From NCBI GenBank assembly GCA_018509705.1, contig GCA_018509705.1_3630.1: DNA of 64,000 bases; one strand, 5' to 3'. Positions within the stretch are counted from its first letter, which is position 1. Every line of letters begins with the position of its first letter. Of this stretch, positions 1 through 31,270 are shown piece after piece. A program made the translations under genes and the position numbers. Source of the stretch: a phage. The notes under the pieces were generated by a model. It was not told the origin of the DNA, did no database searches, and worked only from the letters and a program-made list of their open reading frames with translations.

Positions 1-165
1 ATCTCTCTTAACCATATTTTTGTTTCTACGAGATCCACCCTTCCTGTAGTACATATAGCATTCCTTGCATGTACCTGAGTATCCATCCTTGCTCTTAGAT
101 GATAAAAAGAAATCATCAATAGGTAGAACTCTTTGGCAATCCATACATTTTTTAGTATTACACAT
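1..165 (-). CDS. Cys-rich zinc-ribbon protein, N-terminal part; gene runs off the window start; possible homing-endonuclease-like ORF
   Basis: Minus-strand ATG at 165 after GGGAGGG RBS; open to position 1; CxxC...CKEC pattern like the N-terminus of the HNH protein at 63156-63734. Confidence 0.3.
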   Translation of the reverse strand, partial: MCNTKKCMDCQRVLPIDDFFLSSKSKDGYSGTCKECYMYYRKGGSRRNKNMVKRD

Positions 166-380
166 TCACCCTCCCGTTTCGAATCGCTTGATTCTACGTC
201 TTTCGACTAGTCGTTGAACGTTCATCCTCTCGGATGCTTCGCTGCGGATTATCTAAATTAACACACTGTTACCATACCTTCGATCTCTCTTCGAAGCCTC
301 TATCATGTTACCATGACAGGTTGGTGGTGTCAATAATAAAGATTTCCCCGCAATTAGGGAGGTTTTACGAGAGCTACAAA

Positions 381-809
381 TTAACCCTCATCGAAGCAAA
401 CCATGGTGTACTCAAGCCCTTGATGGTTAAGCTTATCTTGTACATACTCCATGTGACAGTATTTTACAACAGCTCCCTTTTTGCTTCTATCCCACTTGCC
501 AGTGTTCGGATCAAACCGTGGAAAAATGAACTTATGATCCTTCTCTCTGAACTTTGGCTTAATGTTTTCAGGCAGATCACTGTAAATAGCTACTGCTTTA
601 GGCCATAGTCCACCCTCACCTTCCAACTGTGGGGTTGTTCTTCGGAACATAACCACAGAGCTGTGGGGGTCATCAATAATTTTAAGTGGCATCAACTGCA
701 AGAGGAACGACTTGCCAGACCCTGCGGCACCGCCGATTACCAAAATATCTGCATCGTTTTCTAGGATCATCTTCTGCTTTTCAGAACACGGTCCGTAAAT
801 CTTAGACAT
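381..809 (-). CDS. P-loop ATPase fragment resembling a terminase large subunit N-terminal domain, ending right after a Walker-B-like FDEG
   Basis: Walker A GGAAGSGKS preceded by Q-rich motif, C-terminus MVCFDEG then stop; only 142 aa. Confidence 0.4.
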   Translation of the reverse strand: MSKIYGPCSEKQKMILENDADILVIGGAAGSGKSFLLQLMPLKIIDDPHSSVVMFRRTTPQLEGEGGLWPKAVAIYSDLPENIKPKFREKDHKFIFPRFDPNTGKWDRSKKGAVVKYCHMEYVQDKLNHQGLEYTMVCFDEG

Positions 810-1912: not shown

Positions 1913-1989
1913 TGGTCTCCACGGAGTGATTCGAACACTCGACCTCCTGATCCCAAATCAGGCGCTCTACCAAGCTGAGCTACGCGGAG
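1913..1989 (-). tRNA. tRNA-Pro (anticodon UGG)
   Basis: Cloverleaf readable on minus strand: 7-bp acceptor, T-loop GTTCGAATC, anticodon loop TTTGGGA, CCA encoded. Confidence 0.7.
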
Positions 1990-2000
1990 TATTTATTATT

Positions 2001-2076
2001 TGGTGGCCCTGGGTGGAATTGAACCACCGTCTGGCGATTATGAGTCGCTTGCTTGAACCTTCCAGCTACAGGGCCA
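2001..2076 (-). tRNA. tRNA-Met or Ile2 (anticodon CAU)
   Basis: Minus strand; T-arm GGTGGTTCAATTCCACC, anticodon loop CTCATAA, CCA encoded. Confidence 0.6.
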
Positions 2077-2153
2077 TGGTGCTGATGGCAGGACTTGAAC
2101 CTGCAACCTATTGATTACAAATCAATTGCACTACCAATTGTGCTACATCAGCA
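2077..2153 (-). tRNA. tRNA-Thr (anticodon UGU)
   Basis: Minus strand; D-arm GCACAATTGGTAGTGC, anticodon loop TTTGTAA, T-arm GCAGGTTCAAGTCCTGC, CCA encoded. Confidence 0.65.
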
Positions 2154-2157
2154 AAAA

Positions 2158-2256
2158 GGTGCTAGGTGATGGAATCGAACCACCTATGTATTCAACGACT
2201 ACCTCGTCTATTTTCAGGATTAAAAATCCTCGCCCTTGCCAAAGGGCTTACCTAGC
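2158..2256 (-). tRNA. Aberrant tRNA-like element (good acceptor/D/T arms, irregular anticodon arm, over-long variable region); possible pseudo-tRNA
   Basis: Acceptor GCTAGGT/ACCTAGC pair, T-arm GGTGGTTCGATTCCATC, but anticodon stem does not close canonically and about 30 nt lie between anticodon arm and T-arm. Confidence 0.25.
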
Positions 2257-2354
2257 TCAGTATGTTGACCATGTTGCTAGTCGGCGATGACGACTGTAAC
2301 ATTTGATAATCCGGTTCTGCTTCCGGCTTTCGCTTAATTACAAGGTCAACAATA

Positions 2355-2445
2355 TGGCTGAGGGTAATGGAATCGAACCATCATCAAGTCATCCTCAACG
2401 GGACGGTTTTCAAGACCGCTTGAGCACCATTGCTCCCTACCCTCA
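2355..2445 (-). tRNA. tRNA-Ser (anticodon UGA), type II with long variable arm
   Basis: Minus strand; acceptor TGAGGGT/ACCCTCA, anticodon loop CTTGAAA, long variable arm, T-loop TTCGATT, CCA encoded. Confidence 0.6.
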
Positions 2446-2559
2446 TTTATAAACAATACTGATAATGACACTGATTTTCGAGCAGTTAGTGACTAGTATA
2501 AACGACGATAAATATCAATGCCATTATCTGTATGATTTATGCATTTAAAACTATAAATT

Positions 2560-2646
2560 TGGTGGGGAGTGGTGGAGTCGAACCACCCGAGTCGCAATGA
2601 CAATAGATTTACAGTCTACACCGCTACCCCTACGGGATAACTCCCC
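2560..2646 (-). tRNA. tRNA-Tyr (anticodon GUA), long variable arm
   Basis: Minus strand; acceptor GGGGAGT/ACTCCCC, anticodon loop CTGTAAA, T-arm GGTGGTTCGACTCCACC, CCA encoded. Confidence 0.6.
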
Positions 2647-2650
2647 AATT

Positions 2651-2725
2651 TGGCACCCCGTACTGGACTCGAACCAGTGTCAACGGCTTAGAAGGCCGCT
2701 GCTTTATCCACTAAGCTAACAGGGC
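2651..2725 (-). tRNA. tRNA-Arg (anticodon UCU)
   Basis: Minus strand; D-arm GCTTAGTGGATAAAGC, anticodon stem-loop GCGGC-CTTCTAA-GCCGT, T-arm ACTGGTTCGAGTCCAGT, CCA encoded. Confidence 0.65.
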
Positions 2726-24894: not shown

Positions 24895-25983
24895 ATGGCT
24901 GTATTTAATGCTGAGAACACCGCTCATAAAACTGGTGACTATCCGCTGTTTCTAGGACAGCAAATGGGTATGTACGACTCTATCAACAAAAAATATCCAC
25001 AACTGTTTGAACTGTACAAAAAACAAAAAGAACAAGATTGGGCAGAGGATGAAGTGGATTTGTCGCAATCTATTTCAGATTTTGTAACATGCTCAAAGTC
25101 AACTTATGACGTGATGGTGCAGACCTTGATGTGGCAATGGGAGGCTGATAGCGTTGCGGCAAGATCGATCATCTGCCTCTTTTCACCATTCATCACTAAT
25201 AGTGAGCTTTTCACCCTATTGATGAAACAGTCGGAGATTGAAGTTCTTCACGCACTAACTTACTCAGAGATTGTTAGACAATGCCTCCCCAATGCCCGTG
25301 AGATTATAGAAGAGATCCAGGAAAACCAAAACGTTCTGAGCAGATCCGGCGTTATTGTCAAATACATGCAGGAACTCGAGGTTATTGGTGCAAAATACCG
25401 ACTGGATCCTTCTAGTGTTGAAGAAGATGTTGTGCGGAAATGCATTCTTAGAGCGCTTTTTGCACTTTTGGCTCTGGAAAGTATTGAGTTTATTGCAAGT
25501 TTTGCATGCACTTTCGCAGTGGCTGAACAGGGTATCTTTGTTCAGGTGGCGCAGCTTGTTCAAAAAATCATGCTTGACGAAATGCTACATTCGAAAGGTG
25601 ATTTTGCCATCATTGATATCCTGCTTAACGATCCCGCATGGGAGAAAAGCTTCCTTGAGATAAAGGGAGAGTTAAAAGAGATTCTTGATGAAGTACGAAC
25701 CAAGGAGTACGGTTGGAGCGACTATATTTTCAGCGAAGGAAGAGCGATTATAGGTCTTAACTCACCGTTGCTTAAAGAATGGGTTGACTATAACTGTTCA
25801 CCGATTTATGATTACTACGACATCGACAAAGACTTTGTGCCGCCAACAAAGGACCCGCTACCGTTTATGCAGGTGTGGATGAAACCTTCATTGCAACAGA
25901 CGGCGAACCAAGAAATGTCGAACACTGACTACCGCGTCAACACAACTGTTAACGACGCTGAAGAAGAAATTTGGGAGTTTTAA
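24895..25983 (+). CDS. nrdB: ribonucleotide reductase class Ia beta subunit
   Basis: 362 aa ferritin-like pattern with conserved E/H spacing; immediately downstream of nrdA. Confidence 0.85.
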   Translation: MAVFNAENTAHKTGDYPLFLGQQMGMYDSINKKYPQLFELYKKQKEQDWAEDEVDLSQSISDFVTCSKSTYDVMVQTLMWQWEADSVAARSIICLFSPFITNSELFTLLMKQSEIEVLHALTYSEIVRQCLPNAREIIEEIQENQNVLSRSGVIVKYMQELEVIGAKYRLDPSSVEEDVVRKCILRALFALLALESIEFIASFACTFAVAEQGIFVQVAQLVQKIMLDEMLHSKGDFAIIDILLNDPAWEKSFLEIKGELKEILDEVRTKEYGWSDYIFSEGRAIIGLNSPLLKEWVDYNCSPIYDYYDIDKDFVPPTKDPLPFMQVWMKPSLQQTANQEMSNTDYRVNTTVNDAEEEIWEF

Positions 25984-25986
25984 TAT

Positions 25987-26265
25987 ATGAGCTGTGAAAA
26001 ATCTTTTTTCTTTATTATTTACGGTAAAGATAACTGCCCACATTGTGTCAGAGCAAAAGAATTTGCAATCAGCAAAGGTCTGCCTTTTGTATATAAGACA
26101 CTTGGCGAGGGATACACAAAAGAAGAGCTTATTGAGAAGTGTAGCCCAATCGTGCCCAGAACGTTGCCGCAGATCTTCTTAGAAAGCAATCTTGAAAGTG
26201 TCCATATAGGCGGTGCCGACGATTTCATCTCTTTTGTTAAGAATGGTTTTGGAGAGAAAAAGTGA
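25987..26265 (+). CDS. glutaredoxin/NrdH-like redoxin
   Basis: CPHC active site near N-terminus; 92 aa. Confidence 0.7.
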   Translation: MSCEKSFFFIIYGKDNCPHCVRAKEFAISKGLPFVYKTLGEGYTKEELIEKCSPIVPRTLPQIFLESNLESVHIGGADDFISFVKNGFGEKK

Positions 26266-27113
26266 AAGTTGTAAAACGGGACGGTAGAGAAGAGTTCTAT
26301 AACGGAATTAAGGTGATCAAGGCGGCAGAGTCCGCCTTACTTGAGTCTGGACATACTGAAGAAGAAGCTTACCGGATCGCCTGCGCGGTTAATGAAGTTG
26401 TTGCTAACAATCTACCAACCGACCAGTGCACGATCTCTGTAAAAAATATCCATATCCTTGTTGAAGACGCTCTTATGGATATGGGTTTAAAATGTGCAGC
26501 CAGAGAATACATCCAGTATAGGCAGACAAGAGATAATAACAGAGAGGCAGGTGGAAAACTGCTTGCAGATATTAGTGGCTTCTTGGATCGCACTTGTGAT
26601 GAATTTACAAAAGAAAACGCAAATAAGCCTACCAATCATGTACACACTCATCGTGACCTGCTTGCAGGCATTCTTAGCAAACACCTTGCATCAACACAGA
26701 TCCTGCCAGACCGTGTCTCTGAAGAGCACAATAAAGGCTTCATCCATGTGCATGATCTTGACTACTTGATCAGTCCGTTAACAAACTGTTGTTTGGTAAA
26801 TTATCCAGATATGCTGGAAAACGGATTCAACATTGGTAACGCTCATGTCAGTAAGCCGAAGTCAATAGGGGTTGCAACAACAATCCTTAGCCAAATCTCT
26901 AGTGCGGTAGCTAGTGCTCAATATGGTGGTCAGACTATGAGCCATATTGATCATTATCTGGCACAGTATGCTGAAGCAACCTATGAGAAGAACCTTAAAT
27001 TTTGCCAGGAACATTGGTTGCCAGATGCTGAGACTGTTGCAATGCAAATGACAGATAAAGACGTATTTGACAGCATGCAGACTTTGCTCTATCAAATCAA
27101 TACGTTAACTTCT
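26262..27113 (+). CDS. nrdD: anaerobic ribonucleotide reductase NrdD, exon 1 (3' boundary approximate)
   Basis: GTG start overlapping grx stop; ATP-cone N-terminus; frame stops at 27123 inside presumed intron. Confidence 0.7.
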
Positions 27114-27370
27114 GTCAACGGTTAACAAACTGGCCGTTTTAAAACTCTGCTAACCTCAGTATGAGGGGTCAGCTGATCGCTGGCTAACGGGGAACGCTAA
27201 GGCGAAAGCTATGCCAATCCCGTGACTAGCTTCACAAGGAGTGAGGCGGTTGTAACGACTAACCTTTTGGTGTAGGGATTATGGAAGATTCCGAAACGCA
27301 GAGGTCTGATTAAGAATCACACGGTGTGATTTCAGGCAAGAGATAGTCTGGCCTTGTGGAAACATAAGGG
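27114..27370 (+). other. putative ORF-less group I intron in nrdD (boundaries within about 10 nt)
   Basis: About 250 nt GC-richer structured spacer between two in-frame NrdD segments; exon 2 frame opens after stop at 27365-27367. Confidence 0.5.
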
Positions 27371-27679
27371 TGGGGACCGCAAACCCCTTTTATCACATTA
27401 AGTTTAGGTCTGGACACCTCAGTATTTGGTAGAATGATTACCAAAAACTACTTGAAAGTCCACAAAATGGGTCTTGGTGAAGAACGTATCACACCTGTGT
27501 TCCCTAAAGTGCTGTTCTTCCTAGAAGAGGGTGTCAACATGAACCCTGGAGATCCTAACTATGATTTGAAACGATTAGCTTTGGAATGCTCTGCAGAGCG
27601 GATTTATCCTGACTTTGTTTCTGTTCCACTAAATCGTAAAGTGACAGGATCGACAGATGGCAAAGTAACGAGCATGGGT
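27371..27679 (+). CDS. nrdD: NrdD exon 2
   Basis: Encodes WGPQTPFITLSLGLDTS...KVTSMG; ends on T before intron. Confidence 0.6.
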
Positions 27680-28441
27680 AAACTATAACTGCTCATGTAA
27701 AATCTATCTAAACGGGGAAACTCCAGAACGGACAATCCCGTGCTAAACGTAACAGAACTCCTGACCAAGAGGAGTCCTGAAATGAGAAAACAAATTCGTG
27801 ATTTTGAAGGTTATGAAATTGACGAGATGGGCAATGTTTATTGCACCCGCTACGAAAATGAAAGAATTATTCATTCGTGGGAAGAGATAAACACAGGTTA
27901 CCGTCTTGTTAGGATACGCAAGAACAAAAAGACTGTTTGCCTAAGGGTTCACAGACTTGTTGCTGAATCGTTCTTACCAAATCCAGACAATTTACCCTAT
28001 GTTAAGCACAAAGGGGACAACAGGAAAGATAACAGTGTATACAACCTTGAGTGGGGAGCTTGCCCAGACAATACGCAAGAAGGATACAACAACAACTGTT
28101 ATGCTTTTTACACAAAATGCCACGGTGTGAAAGCCACCAACAAATTAACTGGTGAGGTTTTCCACTTTAAAAGTCTGAGATGTTGTGCTGATGTTTTAGG
28201 AGTGGATAGAAAAAGAATATCTGCTATCCTGAAACGTGGTGCGCCTAATAACTATGATTACGAGTTCTGTTACGAAATGCCTAACGACTAACCGTGATGA
28301 ATGTAGCGGTGTAGGGTGTAAGCCGATGACACTCGAAATGGTAGACACACTAAGTGTGAAGATATAGTCTGATCTGCATGGGAACATGCAGCAGCACGTA
28401 AAGGTGCGGGGGTGGACTTGCGAACCACCCTGAACATAATG
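27680..28441 (+). mobile_element. putative group I intron in nrdD carrying an HNH homing endonuclease
   Basis: Splitting ...TSMG | CRSFL...; upstream exon ends in T, intron ends in G (28441). Confidence 0.6.
27740..28291 (+). CDS. HNH homing endonuclease (intron-encoded)
   Basis: IDEMGNVYCTRYE ... HRLVAESF ... VKHKGDNRKDNSVYNLEWG typical of intron HNH endonucleases. Confidence 0.65.
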   Translation: MLNVTELLTKRSPEMRKQIRDFEGYEIDEMGNVYCTRYENERIIHSWEEINTGYRLVRIRKNKKTVCLRVHRLVAESFLPNPDNLPYVKHKGDNRKDNSVYNLEWGACPDNTQEGYNNNCYAFYTKCHGVKATNKLTGEVFHFKSLRCCADVLGVDRKRISAILKRGAPNNYDYEFCYEMPND

Positions 28442-29404
28442 TGTAGAAGTTTCTTATCGAAATATAGCGACCCTGTAACAGGCGAGGAGAAATACCTTGG
28501 CAGATTTAACTTAGGCGTTGTTAGCCTTAACCTGCCAATGATTGCGGCAAAAGCTAAAACGGAAGGTGTTGATTTCTTTGCAGTTCTTGACGAATACCTG
28601 GATCTTGCATACGAGGCTCACCTTGTAAGGGTTAACCGTCTAAAAGGAACAAAGGCAGGGCAGAACCCTATCATGTGGTGTGAAGGCGCTCTTGCTCGCC
28701 TGGATCCTGAAGAGAGTATTGATAAACTCTTCTATGACGGGTACGCTTCCATCAGTATTGGGTATATTGGTGTGTATGAAACCTGTCAGATTTTGGGCAG
28801 GGAGGGTGACAAGGCTTTAGCTCTTGGAATACTACAGCACATGAGAGATGCTTGTGAGCGATACAAGAAGGAAAGTAGACTAGCGTTTAGCTTGTACGGC
28901 ACTCCTTCTGAGAGTCTATGCTATAAAGCTGCAACCTGTCTGGATCGTGAATATCCTGAAGTGTTGAAGCACGAGCATGAATATCTCACCAACAGTTTCC
29001 ATCAGCCAGTATGGATCAATAGCTCTCCTTTTGATAAGTGGGAGTATGAAGAAGGTTTTGCTATGATATCCTCTGGTGGCAACATCGGATACGTAGAGAC
29101 ACCAAATCTGAAAAACAACTTAGATGCTTTGGAAGCTCTTGTTGATTTCGGATATAAACACATTATGTATTTTGGTATCAACCAGCCTGTGGATAAATGT
29201 CTTAAGTGTGGTTTCTCTGGTGAGTTCAGTGCAACAGCTAAAGGGTTCTGCTGCCCTGCGTGCGGATGCCACGATGAACAATATATCTCAGTGATCCGAA
29301 GAGTGTCTGGATACCTTTCCAGTCCTAACTCCCGTCCTTACAATAAAGGTAAGCAAGCGGAAGTTATAGAACGGGTTAAGCACTACGGAAGTTGTGGTTG
29401 CTGA
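28442..29404 (+). CDS. nrdD: NrdD exon 3 (glycyl-radical domain and C-terminal zinc site)
   Basis: RRVSGYLSSP glycyl-radical motif; CLKCG...CPACGC zinc cluster. Confidence 0.75.
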   Translation, partial: CRSFLSKYSDPVTGEEKYLGRFNLGVVSLNLPMIAAKAKTEGVDFFAVLDEYLDLAYEAHLVRVNRLKGTKAGQNPIMWCEGALARLDPEESIDKLFYDGYASISIGYIGVYETCQILGREGDKALALGILQHMRDACERYKKESRLAFSLYGTPSESLCYKAATCLDREYPEVLKHEHEYLTNSFHQPVWINSSPFDKWEYEEGFAMISSGGNIGYVETPNLKNNLDALEALVDFGYKHIMYFGINQPVDKCLKCGFSGEFSATAKGFCCPACGCHDEQYISVIRRVSGYLSSPNSRPYNKGKQAEVIERVKHYGSCGC

Positions 29405-29470: not shown

Positions 29471-30631
29471 GTGAGAAAACTTACAACCGAAGATTTTATA
29501 GAGGGGGCGAAAGCAGTTCATGGTGATAAATATGATTATTCCAAAGTCAAATATGTGGGTGCACACACCAAGATTGTAATTATATGCCCTGAGCATGGAG
29601 AATTTAAGAAAACTCTTGGAGATCACCTCCGTAAAAAACAGGGTTGCCCAAAATGTCAGATTGAAGCAGAAAGAGCGGCTTCTGCTGAAAAATTTAAAGC
29701 GGAGGCCGAGGCTAAGTATAATTATAAATATGATTACTCTAAGGTAGAGTATGTAAATGCTAAAACTAAAGTTGTGATTGTTTGTCCTGTTCACGGCGAG
29801 TTTGAGCAAAAGCCTGATAACCATCTCCGCGAGGGGGGTTGCCGTAAGTGTGGAGGAACTGAGAGAAAGACTACTGAAGAGTGGATCGCTGAGGCAAAAG
29901 CGCTTCATGGCGATAAGTATGATTACTCTCTTGTAAATTATAAAACCGGTAATGATAAAGTGGAGATAATCTGTAATACATGTGGTGCTCACTTCCCACA
30001 AAGACCTCATGACCATGCACCAAGTGGAAAAGGTTGCCCCGAGTGCGGGAAGAAGAAGGTGGCCGAGGTTAGTAGGAAGACGCAGAGAAAGAAAGCATCT
30101 GAGGTAGCTAAAAGGTTTGAGGCAAGAGCCAGAGCTATCCATAAAGATAAATACGATTATTCCAGGGTGGAATATGTTAATAGGGAGACAGAGGTCACTA
30201 TCATCTGTCCGATTCACGGGGAGTTCACACAAAAACCGTTTGTCCACATCAACCAAAAAGCTGGCTGTCAAAAATGTGCTAAAGTCGGCTTCTTATCTCA
30301 TGAACATGGTAGCCTTTATATCATGGTTGACGATCTGGAAGTACCAACTATGATGAAAATTGGTGTGAGTGTCCGGGTAGATGAACGAAGAAAAGATGTG
30401 TTAAAAAGAGCTAAAAAAGCTGGTGCTAGATTCTCTGATCTACATGTTATAAAAACTTGGGAAGGAACAACAGACGACATGCAAACTTTAGAAAAAGCTA
30501 TGCACCAAGCCTTGAGCCAATACAAAATCAACTTCACAGAGAAGTTTGATGGCTGTCGAGAGTTCTTCTACTACAGACCGGAGGTGTTCAGCATAGTGGA
30601 AGCAGCGTATAAAGAGATCTGCGGTAAATGA
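29471..30631 (+). CDS. free-standing homing-endonuclease-like protein: four zinc-ribbon repeats plus C-terminal T5orf172/GIY-YIG-like domain
   Basis: Four repeats of HGDKYDYS-x-V-x-Y...CPxHGEF...GCxxC; C-terminal LYIMVDD...KIGVSVR. Confidence 0.55.
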   Translation: MRKLTTEDFIEGAKAVHGDKYDYSKVKYVGAHTKIVIICPEHGEFKKTLGDHLRKKQGCPKCQIEAERAASAEKFKAEAEAKYNYKYDYSKVEYVNAKTKVVIVCPVHGEFEQKPDNHLREGGCRKCGGTERKTTEEWIAEAKALHGDKYDYSLVNYKTGNDKVEIICNTCGAHFPQRPHDHAPSGKGCPECGKKKVAEVSRKTQRKKASEVAKRFEARARAIHKDKYDYSRVEYVNRETEVTIICPIHGEFTQKPFVHINQKAGCQKCAKVGFLSHEHGSLYIMVDDLEVPTMMKIGVSVRVDERRKDVLKRAKKAGARFSDLHVIKTWEGTTDDMQTLEKAMHQALSQYKINFTEKFDGCREFFYYRPEVFSIVEAAYKEICGK

Positions 30632-30683: not shown

Positions 30684-30800
30684 ATGTCTAAAGGTATTTC
30701 TAAAATTTGCAAGTGTGGTTGTCGTTGCAATCTTCGTTGGTGCAAGGCACTAGATGATTTTATTTGGCATTGCCCTAAATGTGATACGGAGTATCTATGA
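30684..30800 (+). CDS. small zinc-ribbon protein (38 aa)
   Basis: Strong AAGGAGG RBS; CKCGCRC...CPKCD; stop overlaps nrdG start. Confidence 0.35.
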   Translation: MSKGISKICKCGCRCNLRWCKALDDFIWHCPKCDTEYL

Positions 30801-31270
30801 ACATTGTCGGATACACAGAAATATCTTACACAGAAGGGCCAGGTATTAGAACTGCCTTGTGGGTATCTGGGTGCCCACACGCTTGCCCTGGTTGCTTTAA
30901 TCAGGCATTTTGGTCAAAAGATAAGGGGAGGGAGTTCACTGAAGAAGATTTGCAAAAAATCTTGTCAGATTTAGATAACCCGTCTGTGTGCGGTATCTCT
31001 CTGCTGGGTGGAGAACCCTTAGCATACTATAATGAGCCAGATATTATTAGCCTGATGGAGAAAATTAAGGAAAAATTTGGTGACAAGAAAACTATTCTTG
31101 TATATACTGGGTTCACATTTAACCATATCTCTAGTGATGTTCTTAAACTGGCTGATATCATCATTGACGGTAAGTATGTAAAAGATTTACCAACCAAGAA
31201 ACCGTTCCGAGGCAGTGATAATCAAAGAATGTTTAAAAAAGTATCAGGCGGTTGGGTTCAGGTAGACTAG
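30797..31270 (+). CDS. nrdG: anaerobic RNR activating enzyme (radical SAM)
   Basis: N-terminal GPGIRTALWVSGCPHACPGCFN cluster. Confidence 0.8.
   Translation: MNIVGYTEISYTEGPGIRTALWVSGCPHACPGCFNQAFWSKDKGREFTEEDLQKILSDLDNPSVCGISLLGGEPLAYYNEPDIISLMEKIKEKFGDKKTILVYTGFTFNHISSDVLKLADIIIDGKYVKDLPTKKPFRGSDNQRMFKKVSGGWVQVD

Follow-up and report, generated by a model that had tools for sequence, protein, structure and literature searches.

Two probable, independently mobile group I introns in the anaerobic ribonucleotide reductase gene nrdD of an rV5-like Escherichia coli phage

Introduction

How might a phage make one enzyme from a gene that lies in three pieces? In the 64,000-nucleotide stretch of DNA analysed here (the window), which comes from an rV5-like Escherichia coli phage (Vequintavirus; 98% identity to Vequintavirus records, that of phage navn among them), the plus-strand gene nrdD at 26262–29404 consists of three colinear exons with two insertions between them. 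The initial annotation held that three in-frame segments together make a full NrdD, and read the insertions as two group I introns gained by repeated invasion. Group I introns have a conserved core comprising P3–P8 with a P3/P7 pseudoknot, a P4–P6 domain and a AAGAUAUAGUC-type sequence in J8/7. From the comparisons reported below we conclude, with high confidence, that nrdD is interrupted by two group I introns that are mobile and independent of each other, and which would be expected to self-excise and leave the message for a class III ribonucleotide reductase of 707 amino acids.

Results

The three exons together encode NrdD

Joining the exons at the limits given in Table 1 produces a 2124-nt open reading frame (707 amino acids), equal in length to the uninterrupted nrdD of phage rV5 (2124 nt; DQ832317, 85653–87776). 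The exons cover the Pfam NRDD profile in sequence, and the spliced protein aligns with T4 NrdD (PDB ID: 1H78) with an E-value of 2e-167 (residues 103–701 against 6–604), continuously and without a gap at either junction, supporting the proposal that the segments form one full NrdD. The hallmarks of a class III enzyme are present: exon 3 holds the glycyl-radical motif RRVSGYL and a C-terminal cysteine cluster, CxxC...CxxC is aligned to T4 NrdD, and the finger-loop cysteine Cys388 corresponds to T4 Cys290, which we take to be the catalytic thiyl-radical cysteine. In intron-free alleles, exon 2 runs on from exon 1 without a break. A promoter and terminator scan of the nrdD locus yielded nothing usable above the shuffle background.

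Table 1. Features of the nrdD locus, with positions in the window
Feature	Position	Strand	Description	Basis
nrdD exon 1	26262–27122	+	aa 1–287; ATP-cone and N-terminal part of NrdD; final codons GTC AAC GGT	Pfam ATP-cone 1–91; NRDD profile 1–154; junction set by intron-less allele L001
Intron 1	27123–27379	+	Probable group I intron, ORF-less, 257 nt; last base G27379	
Intron 1, P1	27117–27122/27133–27138			
Intron 1, P3	27145–27150/27298–27303			
Intron 1, P7	27257–27261/27344–27348			
Intron 1, further helices			P4–P6, P7.1, P7.2, P8, P9; two extra hairpins between P3 and P4	
nrdD exon 2	27380–27679	+	aa 288–387, QTPFITLSLG...VTSMG	Pfam NRDD profile 153–263
Intron 2	27680–28441	+	Probable group I intron of the T4 nrdD/sunY family, 762 nt; terminus ...CAUAAUG	
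Intron 2, P1	27674–27679/27691–27696		Second strand is the internal guide sequence (IGS)	
Intron 2, P10	27683–27687/28442–28446			
Intron 2, P3	27703–27708/28340–28345			
Intron 2, P4	27712–27716/27737–27741			
Intron 2, P7	28286–28290/28365–28369			
Intron 2, P9	28374–28391			
Intron 2, further helices			P7.1, P7.2, P8, P9.1, P9.2	
HNH homing endonuclease ORF	27782–28291	+	Intact, 169 aa, I-HmuI-like; P6 loop of intron 2	
nrdD exon 3	28442–29404	+	aa 388–707; first residue Cys, equivalent to T4 Cys290	Pfam NRDD 264–562 and Gly_radical; alignment to T4 NrdD
Intron-2-linked exon tract	28442–28477	+	Sharp, 36 nt	Allele comparison

Intron-less alleles define the boundaries

Intron 1, lying between the codons for Gly287 and Gln288, is precisely missing from rV5 and from phiWec191, whose allele is without exactly 257 nt and reads ...TSVNG|QTPF.... 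Intron 2 separates Gly387 from Cys388, directly before the codon equivalent to T4 Cys290, and phages RudolfGeigy and EmilHeitz are without exactly 762 nt at this site; rV5 and MiataMamis are without both introns. Each insertion is preceded by U and ends in G, and its removal restores the reading frame exactly. The limits first proposed for the second interruption (preceded by T27679, last base G28441, with ...TSMG spliced to CRSFL...) proved exact against the intron-less alleles and the spliced reading frame. Those of the first, about 27114–27370, required a shift of 9 nt rightward, with its length and reading frame staying as before. The earlier limits, like those of the Rfam match (27113–27369), would yield ...TS|WGPQTPF..., in disagreement with the intron-less sequence, while BLAST break-points taken at face value (27122–27378) would put a G before the intron and make C its last base, a one-base shift accounted for by a synonymous difference, GGG to GGT, in the final codon of the exon.

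No ORF lies in intron 1, which, as had been observed, is GC-richer than its flanks (0.49 compared with 0.42–0.43 in the exons). It does not occupy the site of the T4 nrdD intron, which lies 10 codons upstream. Inteins were rejected at both sites, as each insertion, read in the exon frame, meets stop codons almost at once (the first codon of intron 1 is an in-frame UAA) and the length of intron 1 is no multiple of 3.

Both insertions contain complete group I cores

The helices of both insertions follow the canonical order and are fully paired, with a P3/P7 pseudoknot and a P4–P6 domain. The U·G pair in P1, the terminal G, covariation from P3 to P9, Rfam matches and clean absence in sister phages all agree with the reading first put forward, and it is highly probable that both are group I introns.

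In intron 1, the exon sequence AACGGU pairs with the guide GCCGUU at six of six positions, ending in U·G, and J8/7–P7 reads AAGAGAUAGUCU. An unconstrained minimum free energy fold finds all helices but the P7 pseudoknot (z −3.5). P3, CUCUGC/GCAGAG, becomes CUCUCC/GGAGAG in an ORF-bearing form of the intron found at the same site, and takes three other pairings in distant relatives; P6, P7.1, P7.2, P8 and P9 covary as well in these comparisons. We preferred this P3, which has six Watson–Crick pairs and covaries in five lineages, to the Rfam alignment (AUCGCUGGC with ACGCAGAG). The sequence CGAAAGGCAGAG of the ORF-bearing form, considered as a duplicated P3′, is actually the 5′ strand of P7.1, a hairpin of 8 bp. 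The two-hairpin insertion between P3 and P4 is unusual and was not matched to a described subgroup. Relatives in low-GC phage contigs share it, some of them residing in polymerase III alpha or clamp-loader-like genes. A scan of viral contigs with the P4–P5 pattern of intron 1 returned three loci only.

In intron 2, the exon sequence AUGGGU pairs with the guide GCUCAU, again at six of six positions with a terminal U·G, and J8/7–P7 reads AAGAUAUAGUCU. Across six introns of this family P1, P3, P4, P5, P7, P7.1, P7.2, P8, P9 and P10 are fully paired (P10 of T4 was left unscored), with compensatory changes in P3, P4, P5, P7.1, P7.2, P8, P9 and P10. One of the family, L011, is an ORF-less version of intron 2 with a T4-like P6a hairpin.

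Rfam Intron_gpI (RF00028) matches both intervals better than expected by chance in a 1.8-kb search, intron 1 with 29.2 bits (E 4.9e-5) and intron 2 with 35.3 bits (E 7e-7, its 3′ half only), but both fall below the gathering score of 50 bits, which is a curation cut-off and no biological definition. Intron 2 scores low because its 510-nt ORF splits the core of the model; ORF-less copies at the same site reach 70.5 bits (L011) and 70.6 bits (phi92), and the homologous T4 nrdD intron 105 bits. All intron 1-type copies score 27–29 bits.

Intron 2 contains an intact HNH endonuclease gene

The second interruption was said to hold a complete HNH homing endonuclease, and the evidence bears this out. 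The intact ORF matches the HNH endonuclease family phrog_59 (E 4e-31) and aligns along its full length with I-HmuI (PDB ID: 1U3E; residues 3–166 against 4–172, E 1e-7); matches to Pfam HNH_3 and an I-HmuI NUMOD-like profile are weak and below curated cut-offs. With I-HmuI, the intron-encoded HNH nicking endonuclease of Bacillus phage SPO1, it shares the HNH region (HRLVA...KHK..N...NLEW) and, at the C-terminus, a NUMOD-like helix-turn-helix module, but identity is low and the target differs (DNA polymerase for I-HmuI, nrdD as predicted here). The last codons and UAA stop of the ORF overlap J6/7 and P7, and its Shine–Dalgarno sequence AGGAG (27770–27774) lies within the 3′ strand of a hairpin spanning 27753–27779 (−12.4 kcal/mol, z −2.3).

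Relatives of the two introns

The lineage of the T4 nrdD (sunY) intron, which we presume to be subgroup IA2, includes intron 2. The T4 intron, encoding I-TevII, interrupts the same host gene. Its core is 79% identical to that of intron 2 over 118 nt by blastn (P6–P9), and all helices can be superimposed. The two have an identical IGS, 5′ exon hexamers one base apart (AUGAGU in T4), P7.1/P7.2 but no P2, and a similar 3′ end (...CUGAACAxAxUG). The T4 intron is inserted inside codon Tyr180 (nt 538 of the coding sequence), whereas intron 2 lies at the equivalent of T4 nt 867 (G289|C290), about 110 codons downstream. The two are hence relatives at separate sites and not orthologues. Their ORFs also differ, T4 having a GIY-YIG ORF after P9 and intron 2 an HNH ORF in the P6 loop.

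The exact site (...MG|CR...), IGS and core of intron 2 recur in phages of other genera: phi92 (Justusliebigvirus), nieznany (Phapecoctavirus), the Felix-O1-like Meda and Vibrio phage F98, with lineage-specific compensated changes in P3, P8, P9 and P10. Nieznany has the HNH ORF too, with 84% nucleotide identity over the whole intron, while the phi92 copy has lost the ORF, keeping its last 21 nt. At site 1, the BASEL phages RudolfGeigy (bas52_0182) and EmilHeitz (bas49_0185) carry introns in genomes without intron 2. The RudolfGeigy intron shares 99.2% identity with intron 1 of the window; copies of the EmilHeitz type measure 797 nt and have an HNH ORF in P8. Spliced joins are already annotated in these BASEL records at site 1, including the RudolfGeigy coding sequence, and in phi92 and Meda at site 2.

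Presence and absence across Vequintavirus genomes

In a survey of about 120 Vequintavirus records, the ORF-less intron 1 was present in 14, its ORF-bearing form in 28 and intron 2 in 18. Both introns occur together in 7 records and neither in about 67, and at least 53 of the genomes have one or both, most of these being recorded with nrdD split into two or three fragments. All four presence/absence combinations are found, and the two introns, whose sequences are unrelated, vary independently. Among its 14 isolates, from several countries, the ORF-less intron 1 keeps an identity of at least 99%; it also appears in a more diverged contig with its helices compensated.

Immediately downstream of intron 2, the first 36 nt of exon 3 differ by 14–15 substitutions from every Vequintavirus allele lacking this intron, with near-identity beyond. 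Over its first 14 nt the tract is identical to the phi92/nieznany exon, and its first 5 nt take part in P10. As judged from allele comparison, this tract is converted, donor-like exon sequence. Together with the unrelated introns and the four combinations, it favours the suggestion of repeated intron invasion.

Discussion

Exon colinearity, exact boundaries, core covariation, homology to a self-splicing intron, presence/absence polymorphism and a linked exon tract are demonstrated at this locus. A different account, in which the insertions stay unspliced and NrdD assembles from two or three polypeptides, has a precedent in the NrdA of Aeromonas phage Aeh1, interrupted by the mobE endonuclease gene. 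Most depositors do list the pieces as separate coding sequences (nrdD_1/_2/_3) along with ‘hypothetical proteins’, the terminal AUG of intron 2 is in frame with exon 3, and a non-splicing HNH insertion has been reported for the relative CB7 (PMC7344957). Yet the 5′ end of exon 2 has neither a start codon nor a ribosome-binding site, its first in-frame ATG being 18 codons in, and a break just before the equivalent of T4 Cys290 would divide the active-site region. With complete covarying cores and exact U/G boundaries in both insertions, and with the T4 homologue of intron 2 established as self-splicing (PMC2988022), we find this account scarcely credible. It is also highly improbable, though a little less so, that either intron, or both, has decayed into a relic incapable of splicing, leaving nrdD a tolerated pseudogene in this lineage. 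The Rfam scores under the gathering cut-off would fit such decay, as would the lack of an endonuclease in intron 1 and hence of selection for mobility; and if plaques can form in aerobic culture without nrdD, a copy unable to splice could survive. Against this, the exons are intact with protein-level conservation on both sides, every core helix is intact, the ORF-less intron 1 is kept nearly invariant across isolates and compensated in the diverged contig, and the low score of intron 2 comes from its ORF.

The origin of the ORF-less intron 1 is a separate matter. A recent deletion from the ORF-bearing form would account for their shared site, identical P1 pairing and 87% identity over the 5′ 141 nt, and ORF loss has a precedent here in the phi92 copy of intron 2. 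We nevertheless consider it unlikely: the shared core has diverged by 13%, P7.1, P7.2 and P8 are wholly different modules, an ORF remnant was not seen in the 257-nt form, and flanking exon signatures differ between the two. The ORF-less and ORF-bearing forms look like sister lineages.

Returning to two splicing, mobile introns as the preferred reading, we infer splicing, the activity and cleavage site of the endonuclease and the direction of transfer as follows. After transcription each intron would excise by guanosine-initiated, two-step transesterification, restoring the 707-residue reductase. The P6 loop of intron 2 has been colonised by the I-HmuI-like gene, whose product, in a mixed infection, would nick or cut intron-less nrdD near site 2; with the intron-bearing genome as template, repair would then introduce intron 2 along with about 36 nt of downstream exon. 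Without an endonuclease of its own, intron 1 would spread only by recombination or through the HNH enzyme of its sister form.

How one family came to occupy two sites in nrdD may lie in its guide. The spliced T4 nrdD sequence contains just two hexamers able to pair with GCUCAU: the one at T4's own intron site, and ATGGGT at G289|C290, the exact site of the homologous introns in rV5-like, phi92-like, Felix-O1-like and Vibrio phages. We suggest, tentatively and as a possibility that is less likely than not to hold in this form, that sunY-type introns moved between the two sites guided by their own IGS, either through reverse splicing into mRNA and subsequent recombination, or through ectopic insertion with selection for sites that allow splicing. 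A single ribozyme core is found in three endonuclease states, with no ORF (L011), with an HNH ORF in P6 (the window) and with a GIY-YIG ORF after P9 (T4). If the suggestion is true, sunY-type cores would form a natural series of bare introns gaining different homing endonuclease genes.

The locus is another case of a well-known type of phage mobile element, with both introns already in sister genomes, and it leaves the current understanding of group I introns unchanged. In Twort nrdE (a 2002 paper, cited in PMC3653736), two group I introns likewise interrupt the gene for the large subunit of a ribonucleotide reductase, beside conserved functional residues, one with an HNH ORF and one without. 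Unlike the present gene, it is class Ib, from a phage of a Gram-positive host, with unrelated introns and splicing shown experimentally. Our literature searches did not find a paper on nrdD introns in Vequintaviruses; the rV5 paper reported introns for terminase only, and the nrdD of rV5 itself is intron-free. The Rfam gathering threshold misses both copies in the window, and automated pipelines will therefore keep missing them.

What the locus offers is a link between the classic T4 sunY intron and its second-site relatives, and a clear instance, in nature, of the life cycle of homing endonucleases, in which empty sites, a bare intron, an endonuclease-bearing intron and an ORF-deleted intron coexist in one phage genus.

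Two insertions interrupt nrdD

The 3.1-kb interval shares 94–98% identity with numerous rV5-like E. coli myophages (Vequintavirus), phage navn being the closest match at 98.2%. The initial reading of nrdD as a gene interrupted twice was borne out: three ORF pieces cover the Pfam NRDD profile consecutively (1–154, 153–263 and 264–562), with an N-terminal ATP-cone and a C-terminal glycyl-radical domain. Joining 26262–27122, 27380–27679 and 28442–29404 gives an ORF of 2124 nt, exactly the length of the uninterrupted rV5 nrdD, and alignment of the spliced product to T4 NrdD (PDB ID: 1H78, E = 2e-167) has no gap at either junction.

Natural intron-free alleles were used to set the exact intron limits. 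Phage phiWec191, without the first insertion, reads GTCAACGG|GCAAACC (...TSVNGQTPF...), and the exon ends in GGT, not GGG, in every intron-1-bearing allele; intron 1 (the ORF-less insertion) therefore spans 27123–27379, following U27122 and ending in G27379. The approximate limits of the initial annotation (27114–27370) and those of Rfam (27113–27369) preserve the length and would give ...TS|WGPQTPF..., a reading found in no intron-free allele. For intron 2, the proposed 762-nt interval 27680–28441, joining ...TSMG to CRSFL..., proved exact, as the insertion is absent from RudolfGeigy, EmilHeitz, rV5 and MiataMamis, which read ATGGGT|TGC (...TSMGCRSFL...). It lies between G387 and C388, which aligns to T4 Cys290, the thiyl-radical cysteine of NrdD. 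The exon junctions of the predicted spliced RNA are GTCAACGGT-CAAACC (27122|27380) and ATGGGT-TGTAGA (27679|28442), the empty form of the first being GGG-CAAACC. Both introns run into an in-frame stop codon by the third codon, as phage introns usually do.

Intron 2 ends in AUG (28439–28441), which is in the reading frame of exon 3, and annotation pipelines call a start codon upstream of the true boundary (GTG 28412). There is no evident Shine-Dalgarno sequence.

Features of the window and of compared sequences. Coordinates are those of the window unless a compared sequence (L004, L010, L012 or L013) is named.
Feature	Coordinates	Strand	Remark
Group I intron match	92–393	-	RF00028, 42.5 bits, E = 1.8e-7
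Large terminase N-terminus ORF	381–809	-	Walker A GGAGSGKS
tRNA cluster	1916–2725	-	five tRNA genes
Weak tRNA-Sec-model matches	2360–2444; 2564–2646	-	in tRNA cluster
nrdB	24895–25983		local gene order
Glutaredoxin	25987–26265		after nrdB
nrdD	26262–29404		after glutaredoxin
Two-hairpin insertion between P3 and P4	27154–27183		intron 1
Same, L010	1965–2003
Same, L012	7360–7395
Same, L013		reverse
Stem enclosing intron 1 3' splice site	27372–27387		4 bp
Same, L004	1948–1966
Inserted endonuclease-like ORF	29471–30631	+	386 aa, free-standing
38-aa ORF			between endonuclease-like ORF and nrdG
nrdG	30797–31270		after 38-aa ORF

The free-standing endonuclease-like ORF combines repeated DUF723/DUF4379 zinc-ribbon modules with a T5orf172/MUG113 domain (phrog_681, E = 4e-80). 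It is absent from four sister phages, whose homology to the window ends at about 29433; the nrdD–nrdG interval of T4 also has a mobile endonuclease, mobC. Elsewhere in the window, the two weak tRNA-Sec-model matches are probably long-variable-arm tRNAs, and a third group I intron match lies directly downstream of the terminase ORF, in agreement with the terminase introns reported in rV5 (PMC3606486).

Group I cores

Neither intron gave a match at the Rfam gathering threshold. A focused search with RF00028 (Intron_gpI) agreed with the group I assignment, matching both intervals below gathering, intron 1 at 29.2 bits (E = 4.9e-5) and intron 2 at 35.3 bits (E = 7e-7). The low score of intron 2 arises because its 510-nt ORF splits the core; ORF-less introns in this position of nrdD reach 70.6 bits in phi92 and 70.5 bits in the Vequintavirus-like contig L011 (IMGVR_UViG_3300010279_000001), and the homologous T4 nrdD (sunY) intron scores 105 bits. 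A helix table was built from six intron 2 members (the window, T4, phi92, nieznany, Meda and Vibrio F98), in all of which P1, P3, P4, P5, P7, P7.1, P7.2, P8, P9 and P10 are fully paired and in canonical order (P10 unscored in T4), with compensatory changes in P3, P4, P5, P7.1, P7.2, P8, P9 and P10.

For intron 1, an unconstrained minimum free energy fold (z = -3.5) recovered P1, P3, P4, P5, P6, P7.1, P7.2, P8 and P9, with P7 as the expected pseudoknot. P3 is CUCUGC/GCAGAG in the window and CUCUCC/GGAGAG in a 797-nt sister form, and is complementary but different again in three relatives from low-GC phage contigs, two of which interrupt dnaE-like and clamp-loader-like genes. With RF00028, the intron 1-type copies that were scanned (that of the window, two from Vequintavirus and the Bacillus phage S4-2 relative) all reach only 27–29 bits. 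Two hairpins inserted between the P3 5' strand and the J3/4–P4 junction are common to intron 1 and its distant relatives and, to our knowledge, are novel. We infer splicing of both nrdD introns, as we do the activity of the HNH endonuclease, its cleavage position and the direction of transfer; the subgroup of the sunY-type lineage we take to be IA2-like.

Intron forms and their ORFs

The 257-nt form of intron 1 occurs in 14 records at a mutual identity of at least 99%; another 28 records have the 797-nt form, whose P8 loop encodes an HNH protein of 177 aa. The two forms are 87% identical over the 5' 141 nt and differ in their P7.1, P7.2 and P8 modules and in linked exon signatures; on these sequence comparisons they look like sister lineages, not the outcome of a recent deletion. 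Synonymous exon changes covary with the intron strand of the stem that encloses the 3' splice site (GGGG/CCCC versus GGAG/CUCC in the two forms).

The second interruption does contain a complete predicted HNH homing endonuclease, as first noted: the ORF (27782–28291) is located in the P6 loop, and its 169-aa protein is I-HmuI-like over the full length (PDB ID: 1U3E, E = 1e-7; phrog_59, E = 4e-31) and only 29% identical to its counterpart in the 797-nt intron 1. The 3' end of the ORF, with its final codons and stop (...AAC GAC UAA), overlaps J6/7–P7. The Shine-Dalgarno sequence (AGGAG) lies on the 3' side of a hairpin stem, an arrangement that may parallel the sequestration that limits translation of T4 intron ORFs.

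The T4 sunY intron has the entire core in common with intron 2, and an identical guide sequence, GCUCAU; its 5' exon hexamer is AUGAGU rather than AUGGGU. It interrupts codon Tyr180, with the intron 1 site 10 codons and the intron 2 site about 110 codons further downstream. Only two hexamers in spliced T4 nrdD can pair with GCUCAU (nt 533–538 and 862–867): T4's own intron site and ATGGGT at G289|C290. This MG|C site is occupied by homologous introns in rV5-like, phi92-like, Felix-O1-like and Vibrio phages. The two-hexamer result fits a guide-sequence-constrained transposition within nrdD, a mechanism that it does not prove.

The sunY-type core occurs ORF-less (L011), with an HNH ORF in P6 (window, nieznany, Meda and F98) and with a GIY-YIG ORF after P9 (T4). 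In L011, intron 2 is 251 nt, with a short T4-like P6a hairpin in place of the HNH ORF of the window. The ORF-less copy of phi92 still has the 5' leader of the HNH ORF and its final 21 nt, and is therefore a deletion derivative. L011, a more diverged contig, has both nrdD introns, each ORF-less (1727–1984 and 2285–2535).

Distribution and mobility

Population data speak for intron mobility. Among about 120 Vequintavirus records with this nrdD at an identity of at least 90%, 42 carry intron 1 and 18 carry intron 2, with both in seven and neither in about 67. Intron 2 has a similar frequency in records with intron 1 (7/42) and in those lacking it (11/78). The exact configuration of the window recurs in four of the seven (navn, 'Campylobacter' A135, A147 and 241Ecol014PP). 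GenBank MG0656xx 'Campylobacter phage' records (e.g. MG065690 A135 and MG065644 A147), with Campylobacter jejuni as stated host, are ~97% identical to the window across nrdD and bear the same introns; their host label looks doubtful.

In the opening 36 nt of exon 3, 14–15 substitutions separate all intron-2-bearing from all intron-2-less alleles (TGCCGGAGTTTTCTTAGC in the intron-less rV5 nrdD, TGTAGAAGTTTCTTATCG in the intron-linked variant). Near-identity returns beyond this tract, and exon 2 shows no difference over its final 18 nt. At its 5' end the tract is identical to the phi92/nieznany exon for 14 nt, of which the leading 5 form P10. One-sided co-conversion during homing is expected to leave such a footprint, as is selection favouring P10 pairing or immunity to cleavage, or the two together.

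Nucleotide-metabolism genes of phages are classical sites of group I introns. Those of T4 td, nrdB and nrdD are established examples (PMC2988022), and Twort nrdE has two, one with an HNH ORF (cited in PMC3653736). A literature search did not find a paper on these nrdD introns in Vequintaviruses; site 1 is annotated as a join in BASEL genomes, and site 2 as spliced in phi92 and Meda. Given the classical phage introns and these existing joins, the nrdD intron finding is correct but ordinary, and belongs to a known kind.
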